Shown here piece after piece: positions 29,935 to 56,668 of a stretch of DNA of 64,000 nt; position 1 is the stretch's first letter, and every line of letters starts with the position of its first letter. The position numbers were made by a program, and so were the translations under genes. A model generated the notes under the pieces. It was not told the DNA's origin, ran no database searches, and saw nothing but the letters and a program-made list of their open reading frames with translations. The stretch covers positions 7,754 through 71,753 of the forward strand of contig CALABV010000051.1 of NCBI GenBank assembly GCA_937886325.1, given 5' to 3'. This DNA is from an uncultured Geobacter sp. GTDB lineage: Bacteria; Desulfobacterota; Desulfuromonadia; Geobacterales; Geobacteraceae.

Positions 29935-29940
29935 AAAGGC

Positions 29941-30018
29941 CAGGGTTCAAGGGGTCGAGGGTTCCAGGGTTCAAGTGAAAGCCCTAGACCCCTAGACCCC
30001 TCGCCCCCTCGAACCCTG
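29941..30018 (+). repeat. G-rich/C-rich arm hairpin repeat (empty version of the four-helix-bundle cassette arms)
   Basis: CAGGGTTCAAGGGGTCGAGGGTTCCAGGGTTCAAG - TGAAAG - CCCTAGACCCCTAGACCCCTCGCCCCCTCGAACCCTG. The left arm is ~90% identical over ~40 nt to 55241-55282. It is built of 8-nt AGGGKTCN units facing CCCTNGNN units. Confidence 0.8.
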
Positions 30019-54098: not shown

Positions 54099-55238
54099 AT
54101 GGTCACATTCATTTTCTGGTCCGCACTCCTGATCGTCGCGTATACCTATGTCGGGTACACGGTTCTGATTCCGGCAATCGCCCTGTTCTTCAGGAAACCG
54201 GTAGCCTTCAGTGATTGCGAACCCCGTGTAACCTTCCTCATCACCGCCTACAACGAAGAAAAGAACATCCGCGCCAAGCTGGAACAGGTGCTTTCCCTTG
54301 ACTACCCCCATGACAGTCTGGAGGTCATGGTCGCCTCCGACGGCTCCACCGATCGGACAGACGACATCGTGCGCGAGTTCGGCGACCGCGGGGTTATCCT
54401 GAAACGGGTGGAAGGAAGGGTCGGCAAGACCGCCACCCAGAACGAGGCCGTGAAAGACGCGAGCGGCGAGGTGGTTATCTTTTCCGATGCAACCACGGTC
54501 TATGAAAAGGACGCAATCCGGAAAATTGTCCGCAACTACGCGGATCCCGAAGTGGGCGCGGTGAGCGGCCGCTACGAGTATGTCAACCCGACCGGCGCGC
54601 CGGTGGGTACAGGCACCATCCTGTTCTGGAAATACGAAAACTTCATCAAGAGCATGCAGACCCGCATCAGGACCATTACCGGCTGTTGCGGCTGCATCTA
54701 TTCGGTGCGGCGGTCCGCCTACGTGCCCCTGCCGCCCGACATCATCAGCGACCTGATCGAGCCGCTCAAGATCATCGAAACCGGCTACCGGGTGGTGTTC
54801 GAGCCCGAGGCGGTGGCCTACGAGGAAACCACGGAAAAGCCTGCCGAGGAGTTCGGCATGCGGGTGCGGGTCATCACCCGCGCCATGCGGGGTATTCTCT
54901 ATGTAAAATCGCTCCTCAACCCGTTCCGCTACCCCTTTGTCTCCTTCCAGCTCATCTCTCACAAGGTCCTGCGCTGGATGATCCCGTTCTTCCTGATTGC
55001 GCTTCTTGTCTCGAATGCGTTTCTCCTTGGCGCCTGGTTCTATAATCTCGCCTTTGCCCTGCAACTTGCATTTTATCTGGCAGCCCTTACGGGGCTTGCC
55101 TCCGACCGTTTCGGTGTGAAAATCCGCCTGTTTGCAATCCCTCTCTACTTCTGCGTGGTGAACGCCGCTTCCATGGTTGCCTTCCGGAAGACACTGAAGG
55201 GGCAGAAGATGGTGACGTGGGAGACGGTGAGAAAGTAG
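54099..55238 (+). CDS. Family-2 glycosyltransferase with C-terminal TM helices
   Basis: VTFLITAYNEE, ASDGSTDRTD, VIFSDAT (DxD-like), and 3-4 C-terminal TM helices. Confidence 0.88.
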   Translation: MVTFIFWSALLIVAYTYVGYTVLIPAIALFFRKPVAFSDCEPRVTFLITAYNEEKNIRAKLEQVLSLDYPHDSLEVMVASDGSTDRTDDIVREFGDRGVILKRVEGRVGKTATQNEAVKDASGEVVIFSDATTVYEKDAIRKIVRNYADPEVGAVSGRYEYVNPTGAPVGTGTILFWKYENFIKSMQTRIRTITGCCGCIYSVRRSAYVPLPPDIISDLIEPLKIIETGYRVVFEPEAVAYEETTEKPAEEFGMRVRVITRAMRGILYVKSLLNPFRYPFVSFQLISHKVLRWMIPFFLIALLVSNAFLLGAWFYNLAFALQLAFYLAALTGLASDRFGVKIRLFAIPLYFCVVNAASMVAFRKTLKGQKMVTWETVRK

Positions 55239-55244
55239 TAAAGG

Positions 55245-55321
55245 CAGGGTTCAAGGGGTCGAGGGTTCCAGGGGTCTAGTGAAAAGACAGAAAGAAAGGG
55301 GCGAGGATTCCGGGGTTTCAG
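55245..55321 (+). repeat. G-rich arm of the four-helix-bundle cassette
   Basis: CAGGGTTCAAGGGGTCGAGGGTTCCAGGGGTCTAG...GGGGCGAGGATTCCGGGGTTTCAG. The first ~35 nt are near-identical to 29941-29975. Confidence 0.8.
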
Positions 55322-55357
55322 TGAAGAAGGTGAAAAGCAAAGGGGCAAGGAGGGTGC

Positions 55358-55732
55358 ATGCTCAAGAATTACAAGGAACTTCAGGTATGGCAGAAAGCGT
55401 ATCAGGTTTGCCTGGAAATATACCGGCTGACAAAATCCTTTCCGCAAGATGAGCGGTATGGTTTGACATCTCAAATCCGCAGGGCCGCGGTTTCGGTCCC
55501 ATCCAATATCGCTGAAGGGTATGGCAGAAAAACGACGAACGAATACATTCAGGCGCTTTACATAGCGTACGGTTCCACATGCGAGATTGAAACCCAGGCG
55601 CTCCTTGCCGGTGATTTAAAGTACGTAGGAGTAGAAGAGTTGCAGAAACTTCTTCTGGAAATCGGCGATCTTGAGCGAATGCTGAAAGGGCTGATAAATT
55701 CATTGAAGAGTAAGGTCCAAAAAGATCCATGA
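55358..55732 (+). CDS. Four-helix-bundle protein (23S rRNA intervening-sequence protein family)
   Basis: 124 aa: MLKNYKELQVWQKAYQVCLEIYRLTKSFPQDERYGLTSQIRRAAVSVPSNIAEGYGR..Y..A.GS..E..TQ is the hallmark of this family. SD is AAGGAGGG. Confidence 0.9.
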   Translation: MLKNYKELQVWQKAYQVCLEIYRLTKSFPQDERYGLTSQIRRAAVSVPSNIAEGYGRKTTNEYIQALYIAYGSTCEIETQALLAGDLKYVGVEELQKLLLEIGDLERMLKGLINSLKSKVQKDP

Positions 55733-55768
55733 TGTGCGACCTATCACTCGGCCCCTTGGACAATGGAT

Positions 55769-55832
55769 CCCTCGACTCCTCAACCCTTCAACCCCTAGAA
55801 TCCTTGACCCCTAGAACCCATGAACCCTAGAA
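55769..55832 (+). repeat. C-rich arm of the four-helix-bundle cassette
   Basis: CCCTCGAC TCCTCAAC CCTTCAAC CCCTAGAA TCCTTGAC CCCTAGAA CCCATGAA CCCTAGAA: eight 8-nt units complementary in pattern to the G-rich arm. It contains the ATG of the next gene. Confidence 0.8.
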
Positions 55833-56668
55833 TTATCAACGGCCTCAGCTTTGATATCGAAGACTGGTTCCAGGTGGAGAACCTGAAAGGCGCCATCTCG
55901 GCGGACAGCTGGGATCGGTGCGACCTGCGGGTAGTGGAAAATACCCGGCGGATCCTTCGCATCCTTGAAAGAAGCGATACCAAGGCCACGTTCTTCATCC
56001 TCGGCTGGATTGCGGAACGATGCGCGGGGCTGGTGGAGGAAATTGCCGCGGCCGGCCACGAAATCGCAAGCCACGGCTACAGCCACGAACTCATCTACAA
56101 ACTGGATGCGTCTGCATTCGCCCGGGACCTGGGTAGGTCGAAGAGCGTCATCGAAGCAATCACCGGCCGTCCGGTGCGCGGCTACCGCGCCCCCTCCTTC
56201 TCCCTCACCCCGGAAACGGGTTGGGCGCTGGACGTCCTCCGTGAACTTGATTTTTCCTATGATTCCAGCGTATTTCCCACGTCGTTTCATGACCGCTACG
56301 GTTTCAAGGGTTCCTCGCGCTTCCCGTTCCGCCACCGGAACGGGCTGGTCGAGCTTCCCCTGTCCACGGTCAGGATCCGTCGCTTCAACCTTCCGGCAGC
56401 GGGTGGAGGGTATTTTAGGCTGTTCCCCTATATCCTCTTCCGTCACCTGGGACTGAGTATCAACCGGGAAGGCAAGCCGATGATTTTCTACCTCCACCCA
56501 TGGGAGCTGGACCCCGGTCAGCCGCGTCTGCCGATCCGGCGCGATTACCGCTTCCGTCATTACGTGAACCTGGACCGCACCGAACCGAGGCTTGAAAGGC
56601 TCCTGAAGGAATTTCCGTTCGAACCTCTCGGAGACCTTGCGGAACGGTTTTTCTCTACCGCGGGGTAA
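55820..56668 (+). CDS. Polysaccharide deacetylase of the XrtA/PEP-CTERM-locus type (NodB-like + DUF3473-like C-terminus), paralogue 3
   Basis: MNPRIINGLSFDIEDWFQVENL.., FFILGWIAE, ASHGYSH, and C-terminal ..YLHPWELDP. Confidence 0.85.
   Translation: MNPRIINGLSFDIEDWFQVENLKGAISADSWDRCDLRVVENTRRILRILERSDTKATFFILGWIAERCAGLVEEIAAAGHEIASHGYSHELIYKLDASAFARDLGRSKSVIEAITGRPVRGYRAPSFSLTPETGWALDVLRELDFSYDSSVFPTSFHDRYGFKGSSRFPFRHRNGLVELPLSTVRIRRFNLPAAGGGYFRLFPYILFRHLGLSINREGKPMIFYLHPWELDPGQPRLPIRRDYRFRHYVNLDRTEPRLERLLKEFPFEPLGDLAERFFSTAG

Follow-up and report, generated by a model that had tools for sequence, protein, structure and literature searches.

Intervening sequences (IVSs) of rRNA reside in 23S (or 16S) rRNA genes, typically in helix 9, 25 or 45, and RNase III removes them from the precursor RNA, which is not re-ligated. 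An ORF-bearing 23S rRNA IVS was reportedly described in Leptospira by Ralph and McClelland in 1993. A further protein of related interest, the DGR accessory protein Avd (bAvd, PDB 4DWL), works on nucleic acid in concert with RNA elements in cis. In Coxiella burnetii, the helix-45 IVS carries an S23p ORF and forms a 28-bp stem which RNase III cuts mid-stem (Warrier et al. 2016, PMC4990558). Short repeats of another kind have been reported from Geobacter metallireducens, where paired tandem hepta-/octanucleotide repeats were termed 'global regulator binding sites' (Aklujkar et al. 2009, PMC2700814). The repeats come in intergenic pairs, each partner with 3-5 tandem 7-9-nt units; the partners lie on opposite strands at a variable distance from each other, and were interpreted as binding sites of IHF/HU-type proteins (PMC2700814). 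Neither the text of that study nor its 17 supplementary files link the repeats to four-helix-bundle or GxxExxY genes, and our searches of the literature, Rfam and PADLOC returned no description of such arms around PF05635 genes lying outside rRNA.

The window analysed here (a 64,000-nt stretch of a contig from an uncultured Geobacter sp.) contains a PF05635 gene inserted, in sense orientation, between the stop codon of a GT2 glycosyltransferase gene and the start codon of a DUF3473/polysaccharide deacetylase gene (Table 1). A sequence-only reading had proposed that this 124-aa gene is carried between G-rich and C-rich arms able to pair over tens of nucleotides. Every feature it named was found in place, and the arms taken alone fold far better than their shuffled versions (-82.5 kcal/mol vs -49.1 +/- 4.6; z = -7.3; 0/300 shuffles as good); for the entire 605-nt region, z = -4.2 against shuffles. 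The 5' arm contains AGGGKTCN units at 55246-55279, followed by a second copy that is 77% identical over 55295-55325 (direct-repeat family D1), while eight CCCTNGAA-type units make up positions 55768-55832 of the 3' arm. In the predicted fold, the cassette is enclosed by a long stem of about 56 bp composed of two helices: the outer one pairs 55245-55275 with 55791-55822 (29 bp, 2 G.U), and the inner one pairs 55296-55332 with 55753-55788 (about 27 bp).

Table 1. Coordinates (window numbering) of the cassette, its flanking genes and an ORF-less hairpin of the same octamer family.
Feature	Coordinates	Strand	Basis
ORF-less hairpin of the cassette's octamer family, between sugar-transferase stop and Wza-like exporter start	29937..30017	+	78 nt; fold
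GT2 glycosyltransferase gene	54099..55238	+	Pfam PF00535, E 1.3e-24
Outer 5' arm: leader AAAGGC, then AGGGTTCA AGGGGTCG AGGGTTCC AGGGGTCT AG	55242..55279	+	sequence, repeats, fold
Second 5'-arm copy, degenerate (inner helix, 5' strand)	55295..55332	+	pairs with 55753-55788 in MFE fold
Cargo Shine-Dalgarno sequence AAGGAGGG, within an arm-like purine-rich unit	55347..55354	+	read from sequence; 4 nt 5' of ATG 55358
Cargo gene, 124-aa four-helix-bundle protein ('23S rRNA IVS protein', Avd relative)	55358..55732	+	PF05635 / TIGR02436
3' arm: inner-helix strand 55753-55788; outer helix 55791-55822 (to 55828)	55753..55832	+	sequence, repeats, fold
DUF3473 / polysaccharide deacetylase gene	55820..56668	+	Pfam; ATG 55820-55822 at stem base

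The GT2 stop codon (TAG, 55236-55238) lies 4-7 nt 5' of the stem base, and the deacetylase frame, after a stop at 55805-55807, offers a sole in-frame start, the ATG at 55820. This ATG sits in a mutated arm unit (CCCATGAA in place of CCCTAGAA), and no Shine-Dalgarno sequence precedes it. Its U and G, together with the preceding 14 nt, are paired with a probability of at least 0.9 in the predicted fold, which buries the start codon in the stem base, as anticipated by the earlier proposal that arm pairing would occlude the deacetylase start. Among the deacetylase orthologues of related genomes, the N-termini vary up to a conserved NGLSFDIEDWF. No match to Rfam was obtained in 54800-56200, no terminator-like site was found at the cassette, and the only promoter-like signals detected for it are hexamers within the 3' arm. 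The latter, sigma-70-like hexamers created by the arm units themselves (TTGACC-18-TAGAAT, 10/12; + strand, window 55772-55833), are probably a by-product of the repeat, since the second hexamer ends past the deacetylase ATG. Integron attC and CRISPR array readings of the arms were considered and rejected, as arms are present on both sides and there are no spacers.

The cargo protein matches PF05635 (E 1.8e-39; 134.7 bits, cut-off 33.8; over 1-106/106) and TIGR02436 (132 bits, cut-off 24) at full length and above the curated cut-offs, and also exceeds the cut-off of NF008911 (150.5 bits, cut-off 137). By sequence similarity, the closest solved structure is 2GSC (XCC0516; E 3.7e-24, residues 5-118), a pentamer of four-helix bundles. 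The only other Pfam family matched is bAvd (PF22296), with 27.7 bits against a cut-off of 40. Identity of the cargo as a DGR Avd was rejected at 27 bits versus the Avd model cut-off of 80 (27.3 bits with the equivalog model NF033474). PADLOC defence-system models include none for PF05635 or GxxExxY cargo, and no relative was found in phage records. Plasmid-borne relatives are mostly cyanobacterial (33 records); the copy on plasmid gamma of Nostoc sp. PCC 7120 (NC_003267.1:15088-15438) adjoins a transposase and has heptamer-like arrays, ACTTCAA-type 5' and CCTCTGC-type 3', that are non-complementary. Among the proteins of the genus, the cargo protein is an outlier in the protein tree. Closest to it are a protein from a Desulfosarcina MAG, at 68% identity and likewise flanked by the octamer arms, and 80 loci from unrelated metagenomes (60-76% identity).

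Comparison with same-genus genomes revealed three states of the GT2/deacetylase junction: empty, filled with the PF05635 cassette (the window's genome) or filled with a GxxExxY cassette. In the empty state, found in genomes G010, G015 and G003, the GT2 stop codon and the deacetylase ATG are 4-5 nt apart; the deacetylase of G010 is 91% identical to that of the window. In G009 and G001, the junction is instead occupied by a (CACRGAGA)n array, a gene for a 131-aa TIGR04256 GxxExxY protein (PD-(D/E)XK-type) and a (TCTCTGTG)n array. More distant DUF3473 orthologues are likewise directly preceded by a PF05635 gene (G004, G005, G014) or by a GxxExxY gene (G007). At empty sites the arms and the cargo are missing together. 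Since the same gap is empty or differently filled in close relatives, the window cassette is to be regarded as a mobile unit rather than a part of the operon; the junction must have seen either repeated insertion or precise loss, and each of these means mobility. The sporadic presence of the cassette among close relatives is also the pattern expected of a horizontally acquired IVS. No target-site duplication is visible when filled and empty junctions are compared, the insert taking the place of a 4-19-nt spacer, so that the hallmark of a classical TIR transposon or MITE is not seen, and we know of no transposition mechanism for such cassettes. The genome comparison thus lends good support to the initial suggestion of an IVS-like mobile element, as do the family-wide architecture and the range of hosts (35-68% GC) described below.

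Short tandem arrays adjoin every PF05635 gene of the window's genome, with units that differ from gene to gene (GTGAAAA, GGGGCTG, GGCTGAA, AAGGACNN), and four of these genes have an array on the 5' side and its reverse complement on the 3' side. We then sought inverted 7-8-nt arrays at the PF05635 and GxxExxY loci of 20 same-genus genomes, and complementary arrays (z >= 3.5 vs shuffles) were present at 24/28 and 25/30 of them, respectively. Beyond the genus, arms at z >= 4 were identified at 52/76 PF05635 loci from many phyla, including archaea, as opposed to 1/147 positional controls (windows displaced by 650 nt). Not one of 40 PF05635 loci sampled across phyla adjoins rRNA, and no known RNA families were detected at the sampled cassettes. 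The arm units are mostly 7-mers for PF05635 and mostly 8-9-mers for GxxExxY. Both arms share the same period in 62/63 cassettes, and in 75/96 the purine content of the 5' arm exceeds that of the 3' arm. The lengths of the two arrays are only weakly correlated (Spearman 0.30). A reading of stop codons within arms as translational insulators was set aside, their enrichment over shuffles being no more than modest.

Several individual loci are worth recording. A fifth PF05635 match in the window's genome (G000:C198:48463-49201) is a 200-aa ORF with a weak score of 24.5 bits, below the cut-off; its (AAGGACNN)n / (GGTCCTTN)n hairpin has both arms 5' of the gene and does not bracket it. A (GGCTGAA)n-armed PF05635 cassette is split over two contig ends (G000:C92:1-393 and G000:C166:70856-71349). 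It begins right after an ORF fragment resembling the N-terminal SAM-like domain of a tyrosine recombinase/integron-type integrase (...YLSFLAVKSRVAASTQNQAF) and is followed on its 3' side by further (GGCTGAA)n and (GGGGCTG)n arrays. A GTGAAAA-armed paralogue of the cargo gene is located at G000:C207:7137-7451. Cassettes also cluster: two PF05635 cassettes flanking sugar-nucleotide genes lie 1.8 kb apart in G000:C207:7000-9400, two PF05635 genes and one GxxExxY gene are found within 3 kb in G013:C438:900-3700, and seven PF05635 matches (two of them fragments) plus one GxxExxY gene within 40 kb in G011:C9:118000-156000.

With neighbour genes called using a codon-usage model trained on the window's genome, cassettes of the genus are co-directional with the upstream gene in 51/52 cases, with the downstream gene in 46/50 and with both in 43/47. 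The 5' arm abuts the upstream stop codon (median +1 nt; 28/37 within -20..+10), and the first downstream start is no more than 30 nt from the end of the 3' arm in 22/33 cases. In 38/50 loci of the broad set and 19/36 of the metagenome set, the arm is met by the stop of an ORF that runs in the same direction and has 100 codons or more. Polysaccharide and sugar-nucleotide genes dominate among the neighbours in the genus: the 97 neighbour genes include 13 for GDP-mannose dehydratase/epimerase, 8 for UDP-glucose dehydrogenase, 7 for DUF3473 and 6 for GT2 proteins. Eight of the 97 encode TP_methylase (tetrapyrrole-methylase-family) proteins, a recurrent insertion context unrelated to polysaccharides.

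At least two AGGRKTYN units are present in the 5' flank of 63/72 usable metagenome relatives (60-76% identity to the cargo protein). The same holds for 7/78 loci of the broad PF05635 set and for 11/193 windows taken as controls from the same contigs; for units in both flanks, the figures are 44/72 relatives and 3/78 of the broad set. The host flanks of these relatives span 35 to 68% GC, from which it follows that the G+C-rich unit travels with the protein subclade. The octamer is conserved well beyond neutral expectation within the subclade of the cargo. In the protein tree, cassettes with an identical unit cluster together. Family-wide, a common unit is shared by 6/7 protein pairs at >=80% identity, 2/8 pairs at 65-80% and about 7% of pairs below 45%. 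Proteins that are 65-80% identical thus often have different units, and protein-arm specificity is therefore not universal: it is clear for the subclade of the cargo, not for PF05635 as a whole.

The sequence-only reading had also implied that the arms should recur elsewhere, and their octamer family is indeed found at five sites in the window's genome. One of these, within the window, is a hairpin lacking an ORF (Table 1), which folds at -47.4 kcal/mol vs -24.4 +/- 3.4 for shuffles and whose 5' arm, the AAAGGC leader included, is nearly identical to that of the cassette. The orthologous junction has a hairpin of the octamer family in G010 and G009; in G003, G015, G001 and G004 it has none. 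More generally, about 68 tandem 7-8-nt arrays are scattered through the window's genome, some of which bracket or adjoin ordinary genes; hepta-/octamer arrays can be cargo-free and sometimes single-armed, for instance beside folA-like and yfiH-like genes. Their units include (GTGAAAA)n, (GGGCAAA)n, (GGCTGAA)n and (GTGATGA)n, and examples of the arrays are located at C6:1-58, C40:31-122, C154:8023-8241 and C200:34691-34846 (G000). Such arrays break the assembly, as several contigs end inside them. No (GGGCAAA)n-armed cassette was found in the window's assembly, and one is present in G016. An abundance of (GTGAAAA)n arrays is confined to the four genomes of the genus with a GTGAAAA/GTGATRA-armed cassette, whereas G008, G014 and G010 have (GGTTTTA)n arrays despite lacking a cognate cassette. 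A REPIN-like master-copy relation between arrays and cassettes is thus possible; it is not established, because the association is clean for GTGAAAA and not for GGTTTTA.

Whether the arms act as RNA or as DNA is less easily read from their substitutions. Over three data sets, transition mismatches between the arms comprise 219 G.U and 211 A.C, and transversions outnumber either. The genus set alone shows a slight excess of G.U (106 vs 78, p 0.046), and the broad set shows the reverse (57 vs 81). Given this neutral ratio and the weak correlation of array lengths, nothing singles out pairing in the sense RNA as the selected property. A sense-over-antisense advantage in the duplex energy of whole flanks (35/45 loci) was set aside, composition being a confounder. 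An RNA-level function, including RNase III processing of a polycistronic mRNA, is nevertheless plausible in view of the operon-sense placement, the lack of a terminator and the precedent of the PF05635-bearing Coxiella IVS (PMC4990558). Genes for RNase III are present in the window's genome.

On balance, and with slightly better than even confidence, we regard the window cassette as a non-rRNA, IVS-type selfish mobile cassette residing in an EPS operon, co-transcribed with it and forming a stem that bridges the stop codon of one gene and the ATG of the next. What the sequences show is the insertion, its sense orientation, the linkage of arm unit and cargo and the predicted masking of the ATG; how the cassette would be transcribed, cleaved, coupled to translation and bound by its protein we infer. 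The unit, of roughly 580 bp, is made up of a purine-rich array of 8-nt units on the 5' side, a PF05635 gene preceded by a Shine-Dalgarno sequence of its own, and the array's reverse complement. It has been inserted, in sense orientation, precisely into the 4-5-nt spacer that separates the GT2 stop from the deacetylase start. Its expression would depend on read-through transcription of the EPS operon. In the transcript, the arms would form the stem of about 56 bp, placing the GT2 stop and the deacetylase ATG side by side, and this ATG, supplied by a mutated arm unit and devoid of a Shine-Dalgarno sequence, would be masked. Two routes of unmasking can be envisaged. The stem base might be melted by a ribosome that terminates at the GT2 stop and has a footprint reaching the first 8-10 bp of the stem (a stem-bridged form of translational coupling); alternatively, the ATG might be freed through stem cleavage by RNase III, of the kind known from rRNA IVSs. 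By either route the operon would be able to tolerate the insertion. The cargo protein, for its part, probably acts on its own (AGGGGTCN)n arms, as RNA or as DNA, given that the octamer unit is specific to its subclade.

A different account would place the element at the DNA level. As hairpins or cruciforms, the inverted arrays would be sites of replication slippage, recombination or single-strand transposition in the manner of MITEs or REPINs, mobilised by the cargo protein or a host factor, and the RNA stem would be a by-product. We consider this unlikely, though by no means negligible. It would sit well with the missing bias of G.U over A.C in the arms, with the dispersal of ORF-less hairpins of the cassette's octamer in the window's genome, with the restriction of abundant (GTGAAAA)n to the four genomes of the genus having a GTGAAAA/GTGATRA-armed cassette, with the affiliation of the alternative cargo, GxxExxY, to a nuclease superfamily, and with the retention of the unit in the protein subclade despite very different host GC. 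However, a DNA transposon has no need of the strong operon-sense orientation and the exact stop-to-start placement, nor does one expect the polarity of the arms to be tied to the coding strand, as it is in the 75/96 cassettes with a purine-richer 5' arm. Moreover, no target-site duplication is visible, transposase activity has been demonstrated for neither cargo family, and the (GGTTTTA)n arrays of G008, G014 and G010 lack a cognate cassette.

It is more improbable still that the cassette is a domesticated module of the EPS operon, in which protein and stem would tune the deacetylase, for example as an attenuator or translational switch particular to this pathway. The location of the deacetylase ATG inside the stem, without a Shine-Dalgarno sequence, and the concentration of genus cassettes in polysaccharide and sugar-nucleotide loci might be read in this way, yet in the closest relatives the operon does without the cassette, its junction being empty or occupied by an unrelated cargo, the same architecture is seen beside unrelated genes in many phyla, and relatives of the cargo reside in hosts of 35-68% GC. 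Finally, a gene might simply happen to fall between two arrays in a genome holding about 68 of them, some around ordinary genes. We give this coincidence hardly any credence, and it is effectively refuted by the arrays beside every PF05635 gene of the genome, by the contrast between 52/76 loci and 1/147 positional controls across phyla, by the specificity of the octamer to the protein subclade and by the joint absence of arms and cargo from empty sites.

PF05635, a very large family without an assigned function, owes its name to a rare location (compare the 0/40 sampled loci in rRNA), and intergenic hepta-/octamer arrays lack an explanation in many bacteria. The GT2/deacetylase junction provides a natural three-state series (empty, four-helix-bundle cassette, GxxExxY cassette), and this series, along with a unit that travels with its protein subclade, ties the two puzzles together in a testable manner. 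As a tentative generalisation, which we hold to be rather doubtful in its full breadth, PF05635 proteins and, in parallel, GxxExxY proteins could be the trans-acting partners of widespread inverted hepta-/octamer-array hairpin elements. Each subclade would recognise its own unit, ORF-bearing cassettes would be autonomous, ORF-less arrays would be their derivatives, and rRNA IVSs would represent a special case. Candidate ORF-less derivatives under such a scheme are the Geobacter 'global regulator sites' and, possibly, the STRR heptamers of cyanobacteria. For genome annotation, it is of consequence that arms can supply the stop or start codons of neighbouring genes. Tandem arms may also be mis-called as CRISPR-like arrays; part of a large clustering study (PMC10910872) names '23S rRNA IVP' among CRISPR-array-associated proteins.

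Set against the known systems, the window cassette combines traits of several. With DGR Avd it shares a cargo of the homologous four-helix-bundle fold. Like the G. metallireducens repeats, it has pairs of units on opposite strands, and the EPS loci of the two bacteria are of a similar kind. As in REP/REPIN elements with their RAYTs, a single ORF lies between inverted copies of a repeat that is also found as ORF-less intergenic hairpins, and the repeat type is tied to the subclade of the cargo. It differs from them in that the cargo does not belong to the Y1 (IS200/IS605-like) transposases, that the arms are built of tandem short units, and that the abundance of arrays tracks the cognate cassette for GTGAAAA and not for GGTTTTA. 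The resemblance to the rRNA IVSs of Coxiella burnetii and Leptospira extends to a PF05635 cargo in an element of a few hundred nt, to terminal inverted repeats giving a long stem, to a sporadic distribution among close relatives that implies horizontal movement, and to a sense-oriented position within what would be the host transcript. In contrast to these IVSs, the window cassette is inserted not in rRNA but between protein-coding genes, at the GT2-deacetylase mRNA junction, its arms consist of tandem 8-nt units rather than a unique 28-bp repeat, and the following gene takes its start codon from the 3' arm.
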